Positions 3,723-61,613 of a DNA stretch of 64,000 nucleotides are shown here, one piece after another. Source of the stretch: Escherichia coli (GTDB taxonomy: Bacteria; Pseudomonadota; Gammaproteobacteria; Enterobacterales; Enterobacteriaceae); the NCBI RefSeq assembly GCF_009931435.1, contig NZ_CP043414.1; one strand, 5' to 3'. The notes beneath the pieces are model-generated. The model worked only from the letters and a program-made list of their open reading frames with translations. It was not told the DNA's origin and did no database searches. The translations under genes and the position numbers were made by a program. Each line of letters opens with the position of its first letter. Within the stretch, counting starts at the first letter, position 1.

Positions 3723-4788
3723 TACAGCACTCCTTTCGATGAGGGCAGGGTGTCGCCTTCCACGCGGATGGCCTGGCGCAGGGTGCGACCAAAGGCTTTA
3801 AAGAGACTCTCAACACGGTGGTGATCGTTTTTACCTTTGGTTTTCAGGTGTAGCGTCACGCCCATGGTGTATGAGAGCGAACGGAAGAAGTGCTCGATCA
3901 TTTCGGTGCTGAGATCGCCCACGCGCTGGTAGGTAAACTCGGCTTTATATTCCAGGTGCGGGCGACCAGAGATATCCAGCGCGCAGCGGGCAAGGCATTC
4001 GTCCATCGGCAGTACAAAACCAAAGCGGCAAATACCGCGTTTGTCGCCAAGAGCAATTTTTAATGCTTCGCCCAGCGCCAGGCCGGTATCTTCGACGGTG
4101 TGGTGATCGTCGATATAGAGGTCGCCTTTGACATTGATTTCCATGCGGAAACCGCCGTGGGTGGCGATCTGATCCAGCATGTGATCAAAGAAGCCAACGC
4201 CGGTGTTAATCTTGCTGCCACCTTCGCGATCCAGCCACACCTGGGCGTCAATCTGCGTCTCTTTGGTGTTGCGCACTACATGGGCGTAACGGTCTCGTTT
4301 AGTGAGTTGCTCGCCAATCATTGGCCAGTTCAGGGTTTCGCGGTCGTAGCGTAAACCATTAATGCCCATGTTTTCCGCCAGTTGAATGTCGGTCGCGCGA
4401 TCGCCAATTACATAACTGTTGGCACGATCCATCGCTTGCTCAGCCAGATAACCCTCCACCAGTTTTACTTTCGGCTTACGGCAGTCGCACTCATCGGCGG
4501 GCAGGTGCGGACAAATCAGCACTTCATCAAACTGCACGCCTTGCGAGGTGAAGATCTGCATCATCAGGTTGTGCGGGCCATCAAAATCCGCTTGCGGGAA
4601 ACTTTGTGTTCCCAGACCATCCTGATTAGTGATCATCACCAGCTTGTAGCCCGCTTTTTGCAGCTTCAGCAATTCCGGGATCACGCCCGGTTCAAAGGCG
4701 AGTTTGTCAAAGCGGTCCACCTGAAAATCACTCGGCGGTTCGCTAATCAGGGTTCCATCGCGATCGATAAAAAGATACTTCTGACTCA

Positions 4789-4789: not shown

Positions 4790-7160
<2,371 letters not shown>

Positions 7161-34887: not shown

Positions 34888-35069
34888 CAGCTTTTCCTTA
34901 GATTGAGGGTGAATAAAAAAGCCGGTACCCACAAACGTGGATACCGGCAGGTAAAGGGTTACAGTGCCGGAGGTCCGGCTGTGGGAGTTTCTGAATTGTG
35001 GTTCTGTTGTTCCCTGAATGTCTTTCTGTACGTATCTGTGCATGTTACTGACAAAGGTTATTATTAGCT

Positions 35070-35112
35070 TATCGATCGATATAAACGATCGATAAAATAG
35101 ATATCGATCGTT
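35070..35112 (-). promoter_or_regulatory. agn43 (flu) phase-variation switch: OxyR-binding region with three Dam GATC sites
   Basis: GATC at 35074-35077, 35087-35090 and 35106-35109 within 36 bp in the flu 5' region. Confidence 0.7.
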
Positions 35113-35214: not shown

Positions 35215-36126
35215 TCAGAAGAAAATCCAGTTCCATACCGCACGGGCAACAGAGACCACCGTGTCACGAACAGCGCGCAGGGCCGTACGGACAACAGAGG
35301 CAACACAGACGCTCTCCGCTGTGTCAAATATCCGGTCCACCGCACCGGTAAACTGTTCACGGGCCTGAGAGCGGACAGATTCCGTGCGCAGCTCGTCCTG
35401 CAGTCGGGTCATCAGGGGACTGGCGGCATGGTCGGGAAGCGCTGTCATGAGCGCACTGACCAGCGTATCCAGTTCCCAGCCGGTGCGGGCCGATACGGCC
35501 ACAACCGGATGTACGGGCCGGAACAGACGGAATACCGCCTCCGTTTTTTCGCGAATATTCTGTGCCTGTGCAGGAGAAGGCTGAATACCGGCCATATCCC
35601 ATTCATGGCAGGGCTCCGTTTTGTCGGCCTGCGTCACCACAAACAGTACCCGCTGATGTCCCCGGTGCAGGATGTGTCGCCAGAAATACTCATCCACAGA
35701 CAGGGCACGGTCATCGGCTTTAATCAGCCACAGTACCAGGTCAAGTTCAGGCAGAATGTCACGGTACAGGGCCTCATACTCTGCATCCCTGTCCCGGCTC
35801 TCGCCCACCCCGGGCAGGTCAGTGATAACCATGCTGTGACCGTGGCCACTCAGACGGAAGCGCCGTACTTCCCGGGTGCCGGCGTGAACATCACTGACCG
35901 GGGTGACCTCCCCCTGAAACAGTGCATTACAGAGTGAGGATTTACCGGCCCCGCTTTTACCCATAATGCCAATCACGGGTTCGTGACGGGTGAGTTTGCG
36001 CAGATGTTCCAGGATGTGACGGGAAAGCGAGTAAGGCAGGGAGGAGAGCGGTTTTTCAATTGCCTCAATGGCATCAGACGGATTCATACATGTATTCCCG
36101 GTGAAAAAAGACAAAACCCCGCGCAC
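35215..36126 (-). CDS. yeeP: YeeP-family GTPase (P-loop; YkfA/YfjP-like)
   Basis: P-loop GIMGKSGAGKSS and DxxG (DLPGVGE); probable start at MNPSDAIEAIEK (36087). Confidence 0.75.
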   Translation of the reverse strand: MRGVLSFFTGNTCMNPSDAIEAIEKPLSSLPYSLSRHILEHLRKLTRHEPVIGIMGKSGAGKSSLCNALFQGEVTPVSDVHAGTREVRRFRLSGHGHSMVITDLPGVGESRDRDAEYEALYRDILPELDLVLWLIKADDRALSVDEYFWRHILHRGHQRVLFVVTQADKTEPCHEWDMAGIQPSPAQAQNIREKTEAVFRLFRPVHPVVAVSARTGWELDTLVSALMTALPDHAASPLMTRLQDELRTESVRSQAREQFTGAVDRIFDTAESVCVASVVRTALRAVRDTVVSVARAVWNWIFF

Positions 36127-37315
36127 CGGAAAGGTGGCGGGGGATTCACGGAGATAATATCTGTCTGAAATTGTTTTTAATCGATGGGATTGTTGCGTAT
36201 TAACATGAAGGAGATCAGGACTTATCCGTTACTGGGTGATCTCCTTCCATGAAAATACGCCGTTATTGTTAAACAGCAGGCTGATTTCTCCGTAAAGGGG
36301 AAAATATTTATCGGCTGCATGATTATCAGGTGTGTCTGTGTTTACTGCTGTGAGTATTTTTCAGTGTATTGTGGGGGAGATGTCAGTGGGAGATATTAAA
36401 TTTACATTTATAATTATCTTACTTCTTCTGTGTGTTTTTTATAAGAGTGCACACGTAATGATATCTGTTGATACCATGTGGTTAAGTGTTTCCCTTCCTG
36501 GTCATGCGTAATGATTAAATGCTTTTGTGACACCATTCTTCCGGTCTGAATATTTATCCCGTTCTTTTTTATTTGTGCAGTGATACTGTCGGAAGAGAAT
36601 TCAGTAATGTGAGGTGTCCTGGTCAGGATAATATCTGCTGAGATATTATTAGTTGAGTGTGTTTTTACTGAGCAAAAGCTGGCTTTTAATTCCTGTACTG
36701 AAACGCTGTTGCTCGTCCGGGGTTAACTGAAACTGGATGATGATGTAAAATGAAGGCTGTTTTTGTGTTTGTCGAAGAAGTGTTATTTTAATCCATTCTC
36801 ATCATTGGCTGGCGATTATACAGAAGTATTTGAAGAAAAAATGGTGCATTTTATCTGCGTCAGCAGGGAGGAAGTATTTTATTGATGTATCAGTATTAAA
36901 TGGTTTTTGTTATTTAGAAATATGTCATCCTGTCCATAGAATATTGTACTCAGCATTCAGTGCAGGAACTGTAGTCTTCTTTATTTTATTCTTCTTCAGG
37001 AGGGGGGATTCCTGAAGGCGTTATTCCCGGTGTTCTGTTTATGATTCATCCCGGCAGGAAACCGGTATCTGCAATACCCGGGATGATGCTTTTTGTTCGT
37101 ACGTGGTTGTGTAAAATTTGAATAGTGGATGTGCTCTGAAGGGAAGGAGGGGACACACAGATTCATTTTGTCTTTCTTCAGCAGCAAAACACACTGTGGT
37201 TATTATTTAACCATTAAATCAACAAAAATTTTTACCTCATATTGATTTGACTGCTATTTTTGCTATTAATAGCCAGAATTGCAGTACTTTTATATCTGTG
37301 TGTAGTGAGGTTACT

Positions 37316-38800
37316 ATGTCATTCGGTCAGCCTTGTGATGAGTTTCCCCTGAGTTCGCTGCCTCCACTCATTCGTGATGCCGTTATTGAAGCTCAGCAAA
37401 TTACGCAGGCTCCCCTTGGGCTTGTGGCAGCGTCTGCCCTGGGCGCTGTTTCACTTGTCTGCCAGAATCTGATTGATGTCTGCAGACTGAATACACTGCG
37501 GGGGCCGGTCTCTCTTTTTTTCCTGACGCTTGCCGAGTCCGGAGAACGAAAAATCGCAGTGGACAAATTATTAATGAAGCCCCTGTATCAGCAGGAGATG
37601 CAGTTATATTCCAGATACAAAAGTGAACTGGCTGTCTGGAAAAACAAGGAAGAGCTTTTAAAGGCTCAGAAAAAAGCATTGTTGTCAAAACTGAATAAAG
37701 AACTCCGCAAAGGAGCGGATGAGTCAGAAACCCTCAGACAACTGGAAGTACTTCAGAAAAACAGTGCGGAAGAACCTGTGAGGTATAAATTCATTTTTAA
37801 TGATGCCACGACTGCGGCAATTAAGAATCAGCTTTGTGGTAAATGGCGTTCAGTGGGTATTATGTCAGATGAAGCCGGTATTATATTTGATGGATATACC
37901 CTGTCTGAGTTGCCATTTATTAACAAAATGTGGGATGGCTCTGTATTGTCTGTGGACAGAAAGAATGAACCCGAACAGATGATTGAAAATGCCAGAATGA
38001 CGTTATCCCTCATGGTGCAACCCGGTCTTTTTGACCGATATATGGAGCGAAAAGGTTCTGTTGCCAGGGACAGTGGTTTTCTTGCCCGTTGTCTTATCAG
38101 TAAACCTGCAACCACGCAGGGGAAACGCTTTATTAACGGAGCTGTGATTCCGGGAGGATCATTAACGGCATTTCATGAACGATTAATGGAACTGGCCAGA
38201 GGCAGTATTGAAAAATCCAGTGAGGATGAACGGTATTGTCTGCATTTTTCGCCTGAAGCGCAAAAAATATTTATTGAGCACTATAATGTTCTGGAGCAGG
38301 ATTTATCTCCCTCCGGTCCGTTAAGTGCGTTTCGGGGACATGTTTCAAAAAAAACAGAAAACATTGCAAGAATTGCAGCGTTATTTCAGTATTTCAGCTA
38401 TGGTGAAGGGAAAATCTCTGCCGATATCATGACGTCTGCTGTCGTAATAAGTTCGTGGTACACAGATGAATATAAAAAATTATTTGCGTTACCTGATGAA
38501 TCTGAACTGCAGCAGAAGGACGCCGAGGAGCTGTTCGACTGGCTCATTGAGGAGTGCCGCGGAGAATGCCCACCCCGTGTCAGGAAAAATTATATTCTCC
38601 AGTGTGGCCCGGGTCGGTTCAGAAACAGGAAAAAACTGAACGCATTGCTGAACATTCTTGAATCTCAGTTCAGGCTTTCTGTCGTGCCGGAAGGAAAAAC
38701 CATGTATGTTCTGCTTCCCCAGATAGCCAGTTTAAAGTTGTCTGATGTCTCTGGTATTTTTACCTCGGGTTATCACTACAATAAGCTGAGAGCGAAGTAA
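37316..38800 (+). CDS. DUF3987 domain protein (YfjI-like)
   Basis: 494 aa from MSFGQPCDEF with AGTGAGG RBS upstream; family assignment by recalled similarity to CP4-57 YfjI. Confidence 0.65.
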   Translation: MSFGQPCDEFPLSSLPPLIRDAVIEAQQITQAPLGLVAASALGAVSLVCQNLIDVCRLNTLRGPVSLFFLTLAESGERKIAVDKLLMKPLYQQEMQLYSRYKSELAVWKNKEELLKAQKKALLSKLNKELRKGADESETLRQLEVLQKNSAEEPVRYKFIFNDATTAAIKNQLCGKWRSVGIMSDEAGIIFDGYTLSELPFINKMWDGSVLSVDRKNEPEQMIENARMTLSLMVQPGLFDRYMERKGSVARDSGFLARCLISKPATTQGKRFINGAVIPGGSLTAFHERLMELARGSIEKSSEDERYCLHFSPEAQKIFIEHYNVLEQDLSPSGPLSAFRGHVSKKTENIARIAALFQYFSYGEGKISADIMTSAVVISSWYTDEYKKLFALPDESELQQKDAEELFDWLIEECRGECPPRVRKNYILQCGPGRFRNRKKLNALLNILESQFRLSVVPEGKTMYVLLPQIASLKLSDVSGIFTSGYHYNKLRAK

Positions 38801-40017: not shown

Positions 40018-41727
40018 GAGAATGTTCCTCCGGATGTTGTTAAACCAGCCGGTGTGGTCATGAAAACAACGCACCACCTTCACCGGCATAACAACCGGGG
40101 AGAAACGTAAAAAATAATCGGGAATGTGACCGCCAGGAGATAAACGGGGAGGTTACGGTGGCTGAGCCGTACCGGTATGCCGGGTGGTTGTTACGAAACG
40201 ATGCTTCCGCACGCGCGCGCGATAAAGAAGGGATGATTTTCGTGAGGAAGAGGGGAAAACTGGCGTTCTGATAATTGCAGAGTTATTTACGGGGCGGTTA
40301 CGATGGGGCAGACCGTGTCCGGTGGGCAGGCGACAGGTATCACCGATGGGATAAGACTGTCTGATTGGTATTATAAATATATAAGAGAGATCAAACACAT
40401 GAGATCAAATACATGAGTTCATATATGTGAAATAAACACGGTGAGTGTGATCAGTGGGCATGATGAGAACGCAGTAGCAACAGACTGCGCTATCCCTGAT
40501 AGCTGGCGTATAACCTGCGTATATAAAACGTACCAGCAACGCACGTGAACAGAGTGCATTAAGCATCCGTCGTTGACACCGACCTGGTGAGTGACAGTCT
40601 GAGAGACCGGTTAAGTGGTGGTACGGGAGTAATGAGTTTGGGGTGGGTACCAGAATGCCAGTCTGGCGGTATGCTGACAGTATCACGTTAATTGCAGCAT
40701 AAAGTGATGAGAGGCTAATGGAAGTTAAAACCAGAGCAGTTCCGTCGTTGTTCATCCCGGGAGACGCTGGAAAAAGTGATTTCCCACACGCGTTATAAGC
40801 TTACTCCAGCGGAGATGGAAGCCTTCAACTCTGCGGTCGATCACCGACTGGCAGAACTGACAATGAACAAGCTTTACGATCGTGTTCCCGCTTCAGTCTG
40901 GAAATATGTCATCTGAGCGTTCGGTAATCACAACTGCATCGCGCCAGGTGTTATCCGCTTTGTGATTCTTATTGGCTCTTCTCAGGTTATTAAAAGCTGA
41001 ATATGTTCCTGTTGTCGGGAACCAGGATAATACCGGGAGCGTTAAGCGGTATAGCGACAACAAAGAATTCGAAATCAAAAGGGAATGGTGCCGGAGGCGT
41101 GGGCGGTAATAGGCTGATTTTCAGGTATTACCGGCTTACAACGTGTGGTTGATATTGAGGGGCTGTGAGTTTCGCGTATTTGTCAGAAACCCAGATGAGT
41201 TTTCCTGTATGGGACGAAATAAGGCAGCGGCAATACCTGGAAAATTTAATATGGTATGAAGGAGAACCTGTCGGTTACGCTTAATATACACGGTACACTG
41301 TCAGCTCAGGGGATACATGAACCGTTATCTCACCAGCTACACAGTATACACACACTGACGCTGACAGTAGTCAGCAGGACCACAATAATCAGCGCCAGCA
41401 GTATGGTAACGATACGGTCTGTATTCCGGTAGTAGCCGAAGGGGTCGACAGAACCACAATACGGGCAACACACTGTATTATTAGTAATCGCGTTTCCACA
41501 GTCCCTGCACTTCTTTTGCGTATCACCATAACTCCCTCCTCACAGCCTTACCCGTAACCGGTTTTTTACATTAAAAAACAACGCTGAAAATTCAACCGTC
41601 AGTCCGGAGACGACCGTTCGGGTTATCACAGAGTGCCTGAGACAGTGTCCTGCCGGAGGTCACTTCAGGGACTCTGCGCATTTTTTACGACGTGGCTATT
41701 CCGTATGAACCATACGGAGATTTAACC

Positions 41728-57603: not shown

Positions 57604-58471
57604 TAGCGGCATATTGATTTACGGCCTTTTCTCCTGGCCGGGACTGGGATTTGTCGGGGCTGGGTTGGGTTTAACCATTTCTCGTTATATTGGCGCAGTT
57701 GCAATTTTGTGGGTGCTGGCGATTGGTTTTAATCCTGCGCTAAGGATTTCGTTAAAGAGCTATTTTAAACCGCTGAATTTTAGCATTATCTGGGAAGTCA
57801 TGGGGATTGGTATTCCAGCGAGTGTCGAATCAGTGTTATTTACCAGTGGTCGGTTATTAACCCAAATGTTCGTTGCCGGGATGGGGACCAGTGTTATTGC
57901 CGGAAATTTTATCGCGTTTTCAATTGCGGCTCTTATCAACTTACCCGGAAGTGCGCTCGGCTCTGCTTCTACGATCATTACAGGCCGAAGGTTGGGGGTA
58001 GGGCAGATAGCGCAAGCAGAGATTCAGTTGCGGCATGTGTTCTGGCTGTCCACTCTTGGATTAACGGCCATCGCCTGGCTAACGGCTCCCTTTGCCGGGC
58101 TTATGGCATCGTTTTACACCCAGGATCCACAGGTTAAACATGTCGTTGTGATTCTGATTTGGCTAAATGCTTTATTTATGCCTATTTGGTCCGCCTCATG
58201 GGTGCTACCCGCTGGATTTAAAGGTGCTCGTGATGCCCGTTACGCCATGTGGGTTTCGATGTTGAGCATGTGGGGTTGTCGGGTTGTAGTCGGTTATGTG
58301 CTGGGAATCATGCTTGGCTGGGGTGTGGTTGGTGTCTGGATGGGAATGTTTGCCGACTGGGCTGTGCGGGCCGTGCTGTTTTACTGGCGAATGGTTACTG
58401 GACGTTGGCTATGGAAATACCCTCGACCCGAGCCGCAAAAGTGTGAAAAAAAGCCAGTTGTGTCGGAATAA
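57604..58471 (+). pseudogene. yeeO: MATE efflux transporter YeeO, 3' portion
   Basis: Frame resumes …SGILIYGLFSWPGLGF… right after the IS1 right end. Confidence 0.85.
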
Positions 58472-58571
58472 ACGACAAAATGCAGATTATTTCAGCAAAC
58501 GATTTCAAATTTAAAAAACAGGCTTTGACATTGTGGGTGGGCATCGCTAATATTCGCCTCGTTCTCACGAT

Positions 58572-58647
58572 TCCTCTGTAGTTCAGTCGGTAGAACGGCG
58601 GACTGTTAATCCGTATGTCACTGGTTCGAGTCCAGTCAGAGGAGCCA
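58572..58647 (+). tRNA. asnW: tRNA-Asn (GUU)
   Basis: Identical 76-nt tRNA-Asn on plus strand (inverted relative to the other two copies). Confidence 0.9.
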
Positions 58648-58707
58648 AATTTTAGTTTTGAGACATCTCTATGAGTCTCAAAACAGTTAAAAAATAAAAA
58701 TTATTTT

Positions 58708-58746
58708 TACCCGGTTACCTTGTAAAAAAGTGACCGGGTTTTTTGA
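58708..58746 (+). terminator. Putative rho-independent terminator downstream of tRNA-Asn
   Basis: CCCGGTTACC…GTGACCGGG hairpin followed by TTTTTT. Confidence 0.45.
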
Positions 58747-59099
58747 TTTCTGTGTTTCGTGCGCTTAATCGAGTCTCACGCTTCAGTGAGCAAGTTGCCC
58801 CCCAACAGACATCACGATTCGCAAGGTCAAAAACTCTGTTCCATGAAGTACCGTACAAAGATAAAGAGAAAAATGCCTTATGCGGGATGTCGCTATCGCG
58901 TCTTTATCGGGAAACTATGCGTTATTGCCACTTTGCCTTCTGTAATCAGAAAAAGAAGAACTGGAATTTTAATAAATATTATTTCTCTGGGGACGGGGAT
59001 TTTTTATAATCAATATGACGAGTTGAACATTATATTTTTTATAAGGGTTATATGAGATTAAAGAAATCTGCCGTAAAGACAGATTTCTTTAAAATATAA

Positions 59100-59816
59100 T
59101 TAGAGATTTGCGACGTTATGATAAACTTTTTGTACATCGTCGTCATCTTCAAGGGCATCAACAAGCCCTTCAAAGATTTCTAAATCTTCTGGGGAAAGCT
59201 CAACTTCAGATTGAGCAATCATTTCTAATTCTGTTGTTGAGAACTCAGTGATTCCAGCTGCTTTTAGAGCCGCGATTCCTTTATGAAGGTCAGTAGGTTC
59301 GGTATAAATAACAATGTTACCTTCTTCTTCAGTCACATCACGAACATCAACTTCAGCTTCAAGTAAAATTTCAAAAATATGGTCAGGGTCTGATCCTTTA
59401 AATACAATCACACCCGTATTGTCAAACATATAGCTGACAGAACCTGCCGCTCCGATATTGCCGCCTTTTTTATTGAAAATTGTGCGAACGTTAGCAATCG
59501 TACGGTTAACATTTGAAGTCAATGTCTCGGCGATAATCATTGAGCCATTAGGACCAAAGCCTTCATAACGTCCCTGCACGAACGTTTCATCTCCGCCGCC
59601 TTTGGCTTTATCAATTGCTTTATCAATAACGTGCTTTGGAACTTGTGCCTGCTTTGCACGTTCAATAACGAATTTTAAAGATGTGTTTAATTCTGGATCG
59701 GGTTCACCTTGTTTAGCAGCAGCATAGATTTCTACACCGAATTTTGCATAAATTTTAGACGTTGCACCGTCTTTAGCCGTTTTTTTAGCAACAATATTGG
59801 CCCATTTACGTCCCAC
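59100..59816 (-). CDS. yeeN: YebC/PmpR-family transcriptional regulator YeeN
   Basis: 238 aa [18 protein letters not shown]… typical YebC family. Confidence 0.85.
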
Positions 59817-60158
59817 TGGAATGATCTCCTCGAAAATTTATTTACATTACTGGTAAATCGTTAACATGTGTTAATTCGGCATATTATATCATAACAGGAA
59901 AAATCTCGTCTATTAGGAATAAAAATATTCTAAAGCCATAATCTTATATTTAATTTTATAAAAACTTATATTGTTGGCGGGATTTTTTATAATTGTGTTT
60001 TGAAAGCATACTTGCTTTTAATATGTGGAAATCATTAAGACGATAATAAAACACGTATCCGCCCAAGGAAGCAAACAGCCCACGATTATTGCAGGCTATT
60101 TGCCAGGTCTCTTACTTACTCCTTCACATCTATTTCTGATAAGAAGGTTCAGAACTTA

Positions 60159-61613
60159 TTATCGGAACGGCGGCTCATTAAAGGTTCGTAATTTACGCGA
60201 ATGCAGTCGGTCGCCTTCTGCGCGCAGCAAATCGATCGCCCGAATGCCAATTTGCAGATGTTCGGAAATAGCGCCTTCATAAAAACGGTTAGCCTGGCCG
60301 GGAAGTTTAATCTCGCCATGCAACGGTTTATCTGAAACACACAGTAGTGTCCCGTATGGCACGCGGAAACGATATCCTTGCGCGGCAATGGTTGCACTTT
60401 CCATATCAATTGCTACGGCCCGGCTTAAGTTAAAACGAAGTGCAGAAGCTGAGTAACGTAATTCCCAGTTCCTGTCATCTGTGGTTACCACAGTACCAGT
60501 ACGTAGCCGCTGTTTGACTTCCTCACCGGGCCTGCCGCTCACCAGCTTGGTGGCGTCATAAAGCGCACGTTGCACTTCAGCAATGCTCGGAATAGGAATA
60601 TCGGGCGGCAGAACCGCATCAAGAACGTGGTCATCGCGTAAATAAGCGTGTGCAAGTACATAATCGCCAATGGCCTGACTTTCACGTAATCCGCCACAGT
60701 GACCAATCATCAACCAGACATCCGGGCGTAGCACTGCCAGATGATCGCAGATGGTTTTAGCATTTGACGGTCCCACGCCAATATTCACCAGAGTAATACC
60801 CTGACCATTGGCGGTAATTAAATGCCATGCTGGCATCTGATGTTTTTTCCATGCAAGGTCGGAAATGGCTTCTTCTGGCGCTTCGGTTTCGGCGGTGATC
60901 CAGTTCCCGCCAGCACAAGAAAGGGCAATGTAGGGACTATCAGGATCGAGGATCTGGCTGCATCCCCAACGAACGAATTCATCCACATAACGTGTGTAGT
61001 TGGTAAACAAGACGAACGGCTGAAAATGTTCAACTGGCGTACCGGTATAATGGCGCAACCGCGCGAGGGAAAAATCGACGCGGCGCGCATCAAAATGCGA
61101 TAGCGGGGAGAATTCAGTTGGATGATAAATGCCGTCTGCAGTTTCATCGCCAATTTGCGCCAGTTCTGTTGTCGGGAAGTAGCGAGTTAACCCAGCGCTC
61201 ATTGAGCGATCAAGTGTCAATTCAGAGCCATCGATGACATAAGGATAGGGGATTTCATGCTGCGAGGGTTGCACCGAGATATGCGCACCATAATCCTGAT
61301 ACAGCAACGTAAGTTGTTCATTGAGATACGAACGAAAGAGAGTAGGGCGAGTAATCGTGGTGGTGTAGCTGCCTGCGTGAGTAAAACGACCAAATGCGCG
61401 CGTTTTGGGGGGATTGGTTGTGCTACCGTCCCAGGTTACGGTCAGTGATGGATAGACAAAAAGACCTTGTTTGCGGGCGTTTTCATCAGGTAATTCGCCA
61501 CTTGTAATATAGTTGCCAATGGCGTTGCGTAATGCGACTACAGATTGCTCATACAGCGCGTCGAGTTTATCCAGTGCCTGAGCTGGGGTCAGACCGGAGC
61601 CCTTATTATTCAT
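60159..61613 (-). CDS. amn: AMP nucleosidase
   Basis: 484 aa from MNNKGSGLTPAQALDKL; the longer ORF has 52 extra upstream codons. Confidence 0.9.
   Translation of the reverse strand: MNNKGSGLTPAQALDKLDALYEQSVVALRNAIGNYITSGELPDENARKQGLFVYPSLTVTWDGSTTNPPKTRAFGRFTHAGSYTTTITRPTLFRSYLNEQLTLLYQDYGAHISVQPSQHEIPYPYVIDGSELTLDRSMSAGLTRYFPTTELAQIGDETADGIYHPTEFSPLSHFDARRVDFSLARLRHYTGTPVEHFQPFVLFTNYTRYVDEFVRWGCSQILDPDSPYIALSCAGGNWITAETEAPEEAISDLAWKKHQMPAWHLITANGQGITLVNIGVGPSNAKTICDHLAVLRPDVWLMIGHCGGLRESQAIGDYVLAHAYLRDDHVLDAVLPPDIPIPSIAEVQRALYDATKLVSGRPGEEVKQRLRTGTVVTTDDRNWELRYSASALRFNLSRAVAIDMESATIAAQGYRFRVPYGTLLCVSDKPLHGEIKLPGQANRFYEGAISEHLQIGIRAIDLLRAEGDRLHSRKLRTFNEPPFR

Follow-up and report, generated by a model that had tools for sequence, protein, structure and literature searches.

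The interval examined lies in a 64,000-nucleotide stretch of Escherichia coli DNA (the window), between two divergently oriented genes that encode a yeeP-like GTPase and the DUF3987 protein YfjI (Table 1). Measured between the PGAP start codons, an ATG at 36087 on the minus strand and an ATG at 37316 on the plus strand, the gap comprises positions 36088-37315, or 1,228 nt. The start at 36127 in an earlier note on this DNA rests on an upstream GTG for the GTPase; the PGAP ATG moves that boundary to 36088, and the end at 37315 is retained. In the five loci for which the whole gene order is available (L001-L005), it runs AlpA-like HTH (minus), hypothetical (minus), YfjI (plus), gap, GTPase (minus) and Ag43 (minus); three shorter fetches (L028-L030) make only Ag43, the GTPase and YfjI visible. 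None of these eight E. coli records carries a PGAP feature across the gap. The region is present in 3,750 of 5,426 complete E. coli genomes, 1,857 of which have it at essentially full length.

The description of the interval as AT-rich with T/A tracts and free of a credible ORF is borne out. AT content is 61.7% in the gap and 49.7% in the window, and the corresponding GC content, 38.3% versus 50.3%, falls in the lowest 0.9% of 1,228-nt windows. The gap holds 28 A4+/T4+ tracts (18 T and 10 A; top 0.3% of windows), and its TpA frequency is in the top 1.6%. Its GC skew of +0.20 is the largest among the 1.2-kb stretches of the window, a point that weighs against plain spacer DNA. The longest start-to-stop ORF inside the gap has 63 aa, with none conserved, and the longest stop-to-stop frame has 102 aa. 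No k-mer is over-represented, the maximum k-mer count being that seen in shuffles.

Table 1. Features of the gap and the two genes that bound it
Feature	Position	Strand	Remarks
yeeP-like GTPase, 290 aa from the PGAP start	35215..36087	-	Pfam MMR_HSR1, E=9e-15; PGAP "GTPase family protein" in all copies
yeeP-proximal module	36088..36185 (end ~36185)	-	accompanies the GTPase gene in every context
Intrinsic-terminator-like hairpin	36104..36142	-	CCCCGCCACC/TTTCC/GGTG-C-GCGGGG, then TTTTGTCTTTTTT; core flagged by terminator prediction
20-nt block GATAATATCTGTCTGAAATT	36153..36172		invariant in all lineages and contexts
E1, dispersed ~67-nt palindromic MITE-like hairpin	36194..36260		TGCGTATTAACATGAAGGAGATCA...TGATCTCCTTCCATGAAAATACGC
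Unconstrained AT-rich core	36261..37196 (start ~36261)		no coding, RNA or repeat function detected
Operator-like palindrome, four GCTAT/ATAGC half-sites	37250..37285	+	ACTGCTATTTTTGCTATTA.ATAGCCAGAATTGCAGT; 31-66 nt upstream of the yfjI ATG
yfjI Shine-Dalgarno (GAGG) and ATG	37307..37318	+	GAGGT conserved in nearly all aligned yfjI loci; PGAP start
YfjI/DUF3987 protein	37316..38800	+	Pfam DUF3987, E=4.7e-94

The conserved ends of the gap

An alignment of six contexts shows no variation between AATTTCAGACAGATATTATC and the GTPase ATG, and the terminator sequence is almost invariant across these contexts. Partial matches that span only positions 1-77 or 1-86 of the query adjoin a hypothetical gene, an R-M system or IS debris. 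The yeeP-proximal module contains the relic last codons of a same-strand upstream gene, which is intact in strain Y5. By blastn, Y5 has only the first ~86 nt in common with the window's gap, and 101-107 nt in common with the gaps of the other two lineages. Derivation of the core from the 383-aa Y5 gene was rejected: the shared part consists of the last few codons and the terminator, and tblastn with the Y5 protein was negative.

The terminator-like hairpin has a 10-bp stem with one bulge, runs directly into its U-tract (TTTTGTCTTTTTT), folds at -21.3 kcal/mol and ends 17 nt ahead of the yeeP ATG. The minus strand of 36090-36189 has a structure z score of -3.8. The yeeP end of the gap, ~100 nt, would comprise what remains of the 3' end of an upstream gene since lost, together with that gene's intrinsic terminator. 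With the predicted terminator activity, minus-strand transcription leaving the gap would largely be halted just ahead of yeeP. Since the terminator lies only 17 nt before the start codon, expression of yeeP, and possibly of flu by read-through, probably requires either transcription past the terminator or a very compact promoter. On the minus strand, the invariant 20-nt block contains TATTAT, a possible -10 element that has no convincing -35 partner; the block is possibly a promoter element.

At the opposite end, the palindrome upstream of yfjI is the sole match to its pattern in the 64 kb (0.01 expected) and the sole cluster of at least three half-sites. The same element is observed between alpA and yfjI in CP4-57 of K-12 and in 15 of 16 distant Enterobacterales loci, with its start 66-97 nt ahead of the ATG or of the match start. 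Among the 16 distinct sequences, the GCTA/TAGC half-site cores are invariant at three of the four sites, the fourth being degenerate in the three E. coli lineages, and 90.6% of the palindrome cells are symmetric or paired. The spacers vary freely, as does the fifth base of some half-sites, whereas the cores are essentially invariant across genera in which YfjI identity is ~50%. The palindrome accompanies yfjI although alpA lies elsewhere in the present island.

These features suggest that the palindrome is probably the operator of yfjI. As an RNA hairpin it is disfavoured: full pairing shows wobbles and mismatches in both strand senses, and the half-sites are fixed. Fixation of the half-sites despite wobbles favours recognition as DNA over an RNA hairpin, if not decisively. 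RNAalifold chose an alternative register for the palindrome. The yfjI end of the gap (~70 nt), with its palindrome and ribosome-binding site, most likely holds the operator and promoter of the helicase-like gene. The palindrome would be recognised as DNA by a protein; that YfjI acts in this way on its own gene is a guess. AlpA was rejected as the binder, the upstream region of intA, its documented target, having no GCTAT sites. Literature searches found nothing on the GCTAT palindrome, and those for yeeP, the CFT073 locus tags and AlpA binding sites found nothing on the interval. The divergent promoters proposed in the earlier note are half supported: the yfjI side has a conserved operator-like palindrome and a Shine-Dalgarno sequence, and next to the start codon on the yeeP side there is an intrinsic terminator and no recognisable promoter. 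Only these two short ends of the gap, with a terminator at one gene and a conserved palindrome at the other, look functional.

The AT-rich core and its mobile hairpin

Between its conserved ends, the gap evolves neutrally. Of the lineages compared, B is carried by CFT073 and Nissle 1917, and the allele of the window by strains 504239 and CFSAN061769. Whole-gap divergence between lineages is 12-23%, versus 11-18% at fourfold sites in the two bounding genes. Most indels have lengths not divisible by three (triplet indels 4/20, 0/9 and 4/19 in the three lineage pairs), and substitutions show no overall 3-nt periodicity (p = 0.17-0.70). The core diverges at the neutral rate, and most of the 1.2 kb shows no sign of a regulatory role and behaves as unconstrained filler, in a comparison of three lineages with a mosaic recombination history that short constrained elements in the core could escape. 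The gap length is maintained at 1.18-1.34 kb across the three lineages, which could hint at a spacing or structural role, though linkage explains it equally well.

The core could be a decayed or unrecognised protein-coding region, either a remnant of one or more AT-rich genes or one that still encodes a small protein, and we consider this unlikely. The 102-aa stop-to-stop frame, on the minus strand, has approximate counterparts in lineage B (85 aa) and lineage C (80 aa) and has given rise to partial "hypothetical protein" calls at NCBI. Among 5.8 billion proteins, however, core frames matched only such partial calls from the same E. coli locus, with no homologue outside it, and no Pfam or NCBIfam family matched. 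Open frames in the core are ~56% identical in amino acids at ~84% nucleotide identity, which is the neutral expectation, and the 102-aa frame was rejected as a gene on these grounds. A local exception to the absence of periodicity, at 36488-36640 between lineages B and C (p = 0.003), would suit a coding remnant; it is borderline after ~70 tests and falls in an indel-rich stretch. A hydrophobic frame of 41-59 aa at 36332-36511 (start at 36332 or 36381) was likewise rejected as a type I toxin, being frameshifted in L005 and L002 and deprived of its start in L002 and L003. No ORF of at least 12 aa is intact in all lineages, and in the core only a 10-codon TTG frame, at 36907-36939, persists in all three. 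Variable AT-rich genes of ~300 aa lie upstream of yfjI in distant loci; as with the Y5 upstream protein, tblastn was negative, searches of the three gap lineages with ORFs of at least 60 aa from the 16 distant loci yielding noise, and the core was rejected as a decayed form of such a gene. An ancient, fully eroded gene remnant would leave the assignment as ordinary spacer unchanged.

The hairpin E1 adjoins the core on its yeeP side. It is a 67-nt element without coding capacity, has the terminal inverted repeats TGCGTATT...AATACGC(A) and folds at -28 to -30 kcal/mol on either strand (z = -4 to -5.8). E1 is found at 5,265 places in 2,716 E. coli genomes, with 1-6 per genome. It also occurs directly after the eaaC stop in phage P-EibC, where it is annotated as a stem_loop, on pVir68 and in the ibrAB region of 55989. 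In lineage C, E1 is missing and the flanking ATTGTT is single. Where E1 is present, ATTGTT stands on both sides of the element without being flush with it, and no clear target-site duplication was seen. A related element, E2, occurs in lineage B; following its arm, the TGCAAAATGGCATC... end, transposon-end-like 22-bp repeats are found in O157:H7. An attC-like identity for E1 was rejected by inspection, the core-site consensus giving no fit.

The AT content, TpA steps and A/T tracts of the gap fit H-NS-bound foreign DNA. Because of this composition, the middle of the gap is very probably coated by H-NS, together with Hha, and a Hha-family gene is located 3.5 kb away. The high-affinity H-NS motif (TCGATAAATT-like) is not enriched, with 2 matches at no more than two mismatches, a number equalled by 35% of windows, and the degenerate-pattern motif has zero matches in the gap. 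H-NS covers AT-rich acquired DNA and suppresses spurious promoters there (PMC3923964). The predicted coat would similarly silence spurious promoters and insulate the two modules from each other. H-NS also makes AT-rich acquired regions hotspots of transposition (PMC11335895). The gap illustrates how AT-rich spacers gather small mobile hairpins, in agreement with this reported role in transposon capture. The middle of the gap, ~1 kb, would be foreign AT-rich filler that evolves neutrally while gaining and losing small palindromic mobile elements.

Other functions considered and overall assignment

A quite unlikely function for the AT-rich DNA beside yfjI is that of a cis-acting origin, or an origin with an autoregulatory site, for YfjI as an SF6-type helicase. 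As in P4, SaPI/PICI and iteron plasmids, the initiator would bind the palindrome, and the AT-rich DNA would serve as the unwinding element. Published work assigns DUF3987 proteins to SF6 and describes them as MCM-like replicative helicases that phages and mobile elements carry; they have a C-terminal winged helix, and 5'-3' helicase activity has been proven for one of them (PMC4889955, PMC11724360). In line with such a role, the DUF3987 gene adjoins AT-rich DNA, and the palindrome repeats its half-site four times, shows conservation across genera, stays with yfjI rather than alpA and is flanked by very AT/T-rich DNA in most loci. Against it, the gap has no further GCTAT sites, and no 7-mer occurs more than four times, a maximum in line with chance (P = 0.37). 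One 7-mer, ATATCTG, occurs four times on the plus strand where 0.14 are expected; as a set of iterons it was rejected, given that a maximum of 4 is unremarkable and the choice of motif post hoc. The DnaA, IHF, Chi and GATC motifs show no enrichment in the gap, where, as in shuffles, a single DnaA-like match appears under relaxed criteria and IHF sites are missing. The core evolves neutrally, and no primase partner is adjacent to YfjI here. In addition, the alpA-yfjI spacer of K-12 is ~130 nt, and an alpA-like gene appears to lie close to yfjI in the distant loci as well, ending no more than ~180 nt upstream of it; because these spacers are short, the 1 kb of the present gap is not needed for an origin. 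CP4-type islands are generally regarded as non-replicating relics.

A broader proposal, that the palindrome and the adjacent AT-rich DNA form the cis site of an uncharacterised YfjI-based replication or autoregulation module common to CP4-57/CP4-44-type islands across Enterobacterales, is doubtful. If it were true, "cryptic prophage" islands would retain an origin or an operator that their own helicase recognises.

The suggestion that the interval could host a small RNA finds no support in the sequence. Rfam gave no credible match over the gap and nothing beyond noise even at E<=10. The central ~800 nt has no excess of structure (z ~0 over 36290-37100 on both strands) and no covariation, and its divergence is neutral. 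A transcript that starts in the gap, either ending on the minus strand at the 36104-36142 terminator or forming on the plus strand a long structured yfjI leader, is accordingly very improbable. A strong minus-strand terminator that has no upstream gene in the present arrangement would fit such a transcript, as would the presence nearby of the island sRNA IsrC; the terminator is accounted for as the relic of a Y5-type upstream gene. Promoter prediction returned six promoter-like sites, one on the minus strand at 36485-36458 (candidate -10 at 36463-36458) and five on the plus strand, which is not above the 3.5 +/- 2.0 of shuffles. E1 would belong to such an RNA, yet it is dispensable in lineage C. 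Two individual hairpins were also rejected. The plus-strand hairpin and T-run at ~37045-37095, a candidate sRNA terminator, has a z score of only -1.9, and its apparent conservation in three lineages reduces, through mosaic recombination, to a comparison of two. The hairpin at 37130-37180 is not conserved in lineage B.

Two further readings, an invertible or phase-variable switch and one large non-autonomous element, take as their boundaries a pair of 26-nt imperfect inverted repeats at 36091-36116 and 37166-37191, and are extremely unlikely. These repeats are the top inverted repeat of the region (81% complementary) and bracket almost the whole gap, and the neighbouring flu gene is phase-variable. 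Against such readings, the arms are low-complexity A/T runs, one of them the T-tract of the terminator; lineage B does not conserve the right arm, the genes next to the gap include no recombinase, and among the matches listed the full-length copies are a single collinear piece or, in lineage B, two same-strand pieces split by insertions, with none in the opposite orientation.

The interval is composite in structure, with conserved ends and a neutrally evolving core that bears neither coding nor RNA signatures. We place at about 70% the probability that it is non-coding DNA of composite make-up that joins two divergently oriented modules of a CP4-44/CP4-57-type genomic island, rather than one functional element. 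The DNA is an ordinary spacer, gene-free and AT-rich. Such junction DNA is expected in decaying genomic islands, so that leaving the interval unannotated is right, and the interval as a whole is of little importance.

Comparison with known systems

Similar to H-NS-silenced acquired islands (PMC3923964, PMC11335895), the gap has an island context, a GC content 12 points under that of the host, abundant TpA steps and A/T tracts, promoter-like hexamers without evident use, mobile-element insertions and a Hha-family gene nearby. It differs from them in having no enriched high-affinity motif and in being a gene-free spacer, whereas the silenced cases described are mostly genes or promoters.

E1, and E2 in lineage B, resemble the enterobacterial MITEs, ERIC/IRU and REP elements in being hairpins of 65-70 nt with terminal inverted repeats, in the dispersal of their copies on chromosomes, plasmids and phages, and in presence/absence polymorphism. 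To our knowledge, neither sequence matches a published ERIC or REP consensus. E1 differs from these families in its low copy number and its lack of a clear target-site duplication.

The regulatory region of IsrC (IS102 RNA) and flu, on the other side of yeeP, is also non-coding island DNA with a terminator directly upstream of the next gene. IsrC, however, has a family of its own in Rfam and scores 253 bits at 34908-35111, and the gap has nothing comparable. With the P4 ori/crr and SaPI/PICI origins, the gap shares AT-rich DNA beside a helicase-family gene, an island of the P4-integrase type and a repeated short motif. It differs from them in having one compact palindrome in place of direct-iteron arrays, and an unconstrained core.

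The closest counterpart of the yfjI end is the alpA-yfjI region of K-12 CP4-57, where the same four-half-site palindrome precedes the DUF3987 gene and is followed by a GAGG ribosome-binding site. The distance from the start of the palindrome to the ATG is 66 nt here and 79 nt in K-12. In K-12 and the distant genera, alpA lies directly upstream of yfjI, with an entire intergenic spacer of ~130 nt, whereas in the present island the alpA-like gene and yfjI converge, an unrelated AT-rich stretch of ~1.1 kb lies ahead of yfjI and the fourth half-site is degenerate (ATTGC). For the uncharacterised DUF3987 helicase genes of the yfjI type, that of K-12 included, the palindrome offers a concrete cis element.

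Extent, composition and distribution of the gap

The gap, the non-coding interval that separates the yeeP-like GTPase gene from the DUF3987 gene encoding YfjI, is a spacer of ordinary, composite make-up: its two short ends look functional and its middle is neutral. It is free of genes and spans 1,228 nt (36088–37315), with limits set by the PGAP start of the GTPase gene (ATG 36087, minus strand) and by ATG 37316 of YfjI; the start at 36127 in the earlier note stems from the use of an upstream GTG for the GTPase gene. The gene-free interval described in that note is real: the longest ORF measures 63 aa from start to stop (102 aa from stop to stop), the PGAP annotation is empty, and no PGAP feature lies inside the gap in the eight records fetched. 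The AT-richness and T/A tracts that it reported are also borne out by a GC content of 38.3%, versus 50.3% for the window (lowest 0.9% among equal-sized windows), and by 28 A/T tracts, 18 of them T-tracts (top 0.3%); TpA steps rank in the top 1.6%. Strand asymmetry is unusually strong: no other 1.2-kb stretch of the window has a GC skew as large as the +0.20 of the gap, the AT skew is −0.17 and C makes up only 15%. In sign, though not evidently in size, the skew fits either a leading-strand bias or one caused by transcription in the direction of yfjI. The sole other equally AT-rich stretch of the window is at ~58350–60400 (GC down to 35.9%).

Among 5,426 complete E. coli genomes, 3,750 have gap sequence, with two places per genome as the median, and 1,857 have it essentially in full. 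The gene order AlpA-like HTH (−), hypothetical (−), YfjI (+), gap, GTPase (−), Ag43 (−) is entire in five fetched records (L001–L005); in three others (L028–L030), fetched with shorter flanks, only Ag43, GTPase and YfjI are visible. The island adjoins cobU/cobS, the CP4-44 position. Three gap lineages, 77–88% identical, are distinguished: A (this window), B (CFT073/ST131) and C (STEC379). Imperfect 26-nt inverted repeats (36091–36116 and 37166–37191, 81% complementary) enclose nearly the whole gap; they are of low complexity, are not conserved in lineage B and are probably due to chance.

Hairpins and palindromes of the gap
Feature	Position	Strand	Description
Hairpin of yeeP-proximal module	36142 to 36117	minus	ten bp, one bulge, −21.3 kcal/mol
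E1, dispersed hairpin	36194–36260		~67-nt palindrome, termini TGCGTATT...AATACGC
E2, second hairpin element	inserted after 36506 in lineage B copies (L002 gap); record L034, 2501–2610		65–73-nt palindrome, CGTA each side
GCTAT palindrome	37250–37285		four GCTAT/ATAGC half-sites, upstream of yfjI

The two ends of the gap

Many genomes match the gap over its first 77–86 nt alone, and in these the DNA upstream of the GTPase gene differs: strain Y5 has a 383-aa gene on the same strand there, and others have a type I R-M system or IS debris. As visualized in an alignment of six contexts, the module running from AATTTCAGACAGATATTATC through the hairpin to the ATG is almost invariant. Behind the hairpin comes TTTTGTCTTTTTT, and the structure stops 17 nt short of the start codon; in form it would be a textbook intrinsic terminator acting on minus-strand transcription. 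The upstream gene of Y5 has its stop inside this module, and the window gap and Y5 have only the first ~86 nt in common. We read the yeeP end as a probable relic 3′ end plus terminator, left from a fuller hypothetical–GTPase arrangement. In some strains, exemplified by Y5 (L022, 1–3723), this GTPase gene thus belongs to another cluster, in which the 383-aa hypothetical gene comes first, the GTPase second and a dynamin-family protein third, without Ag43, and the same terminator stands between the first two. No convincing yeeP promoter is visible in the gap; TATTAT at 36160–36155 (minus strand) is without a −35 element.

At the opposite end, the GCTAT palindrome is the sole portion of the gap conserved outside E. 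coli. The 64 kb contain no other match to it (0.01 expected) and no other cluster of at least three half-sites. Of 16 loci in other genera, among them Dickeya, Pectobacterium, Siccibacter, Kluyvera and Erwinia, where YfjI is ~50% identical, 15 have the palindrome ahead of yfjI; in CP4-57 of K-12 it lies between alpA and yfjI. An alpA-like gene seems, as read from the sequence, to end just upstream of it in the other-genus loci, as is annotated in K-12; in this island, alpA is downstream of yfjI and convergent. The palindrome thus stayed with yfjI although alpA is placed elsewhere, which indicates that it belongs to yfjI. The intA upstream region, the documented target of AlpA, contains no GCTAT sites. 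The sixteenth locus (L017, ~3900–3960), which encodes the most diverged YfjI homologue (48% identity), has at the same position a different perfect inverted repeat, GTATCAGTTGTGA...TCACAACTGATAC, a hint that the site and its presumed binding protein co-vary. On full-dyad pairing, the GCTA/TAGC cores are invariant except at the fourth site, which is degenerate in the E. coli lineages; the spacers vary, and both strand senses show wobbles and mismatches. Together, the fixed cores, varying spacers and wobbles favour, not decisively, a DNA site read by a protein over an RNA stem. Of the regulatory role suggested earlier, a candidate yfjI operator is retained, and a regulatory hub in the rest of the gap is largely unsupported.

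The middle of the gap and its mobile hairpins

The gap differs by 12.3% (A–B), 17.4% (A–C) and 22.6% (B–C), compared with 11–18% at fourfold-degenerate sites of both flanking genes, so the gap is evolving at the neutral rate or slightly above, and its core (~36261–37196) appears to be without constraint. Indels are frequent, with triplet multiples making up 4 of 20, 0 of 9 and 4 of 19 between lineage pairs, and three-base substitution periodicity is absent across the gap overall (p = 0.17–0.70); one local window, in an indel-rich stretch, gives p = 0.003, borderline given about 70 tests. Against the window (36100–37330), lineage B is 91–98% identical up to ~37000 and 68–82% beyond, and lineage C is 71–86% identical up to that point and 95–99% beyond. 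This mosaic implies recombinational exchange with a breakpoint near 37000, and it calls for caution over blocks seemingly conserved in three lineages.

Signs of coding are lacking. A hydrophobic frame (36332–36511) was rejected as a gene, with a frameshift in L005 and L002 and its start gone in L002 and L003. The 102-aa minus-strand frame has rough counterparts in B and C, and was rejected because its ~56% amino acid identity at ~84% DNA identity is the neutral expectation (0.84^3); among 5.8 billion proteins, its only matches were partial "hypothetical protein" calls made at this very locus in E. coli. Ten six-frame fragments from the three lineages have no Pfam or NCBIfam match, and tblastn was negative both for the upstream protein of Y5 and for every ORF of the 16 distant yfjI loci. 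The sole small ORF of the core intact in all three lineages is a 10-codon TTG frame (36907–36939), in keeping with the earlier statement that no credible ORF is present.

In sliding-window folds against dinucleotide shuffles, excess stability is confined to three putatively functional spots, the yeeP-proximal terminator, E1 and the yfjI palindrome; a fourth stable hairpin (37115–37214) is not kept in lineage B, and 36290–37100 has no excess structure on either strand (z about 0). Promoter-like sites number 6, versus 3.5 ± 2.0 in shuffles. The Rfam scan returned only IsrC/IS102, beyond the far side of yeeP, and a permissive scan of the gap alone gave noise; the suggested small RNA is largely unsupported. 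The IsrC/IS102 RNA (RF00124, 253 bits) is full length at 34908–35111 (−), with yeeP on one side and the Ag43 gene on the other, an arrangement shared with CP4-44 of K-12.

E1 is missing in lineage C, where the flanking ATTGTT is present once. Taken by itself, E1 is present at 5,265 places, spread over 2,716 genomes. It is seen in phage P-EibC, directly past the eaaC stop codon and annotated as a stem_loop, in the vicinity of cdtC on pVir68 and in the ibrAB region of strain 55989. E. coli genomes contain E2 at 6,400 places, of which 660 are on plasmids, and a single genome has as many as 50. E1 and one E2 arm have in common TGCGTATT, 11 nt, then GATCA. In O157:H7 TW14359, four ~22-bp CGATCAnnGTTTGGCAT repeats come after the other E2 arm, beside terW/IS66, and resemble a transposon end with multiple transposase-binding sites. 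Both E1 and E2 look like MITE-like derivatives of a transposon.

A possible replication origin and probable silencing

DUF3987 proteins, which have a C-terminal winged helix, have been described as MCM-like replicative helicases of SF6 (PMC4889955), and 5′–3′ helicase activity is demonstrated for one of them (PMC11724360). This makes the AT-rich DNA next to the YfjI gene a candidate replication origin, a reading of low probability that is kept for the palindrome-proximal part only: the core is neutral, DnaA and IHF boxes are absent from the gap, no GCTAT half-sites occur besides the palindrome, no k-mer is over-represented (maximum 7-mer count P = 0.37) and the entire alpA–yfjI spacer of K-12 is about 130 nt. 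The fourfold occurrence of ATATCTG was a post hoc choice and was discarded on the same 7-mer statistic.

For the composite spacer, the overall description in the earlier note, gene-free and AT-rich, was right. A Hha/YmoA-family gene, a paralogue of an H-NS co-repressor, lies at 40767–40916 (+), 3.5 kb from the gap (PGAP annotation of the identical locus L001). Relaxed matches to the high-affinity H-NS motif are without enrichment in the gap. Coverage by H-NS is predicted as a well-founded inference, and the middle of the gap is probably silenced. The composition of the gap matches that of known H-NS targets. H-NS is reported to cover acquired DNA that is AT-rich and to suppress spurious promoters in it (PMC3923964), and to turn such regions into hotspots of transposition (PMC11335895). 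That E1 and E2 have come and gone in this gap agrees with this published picture.
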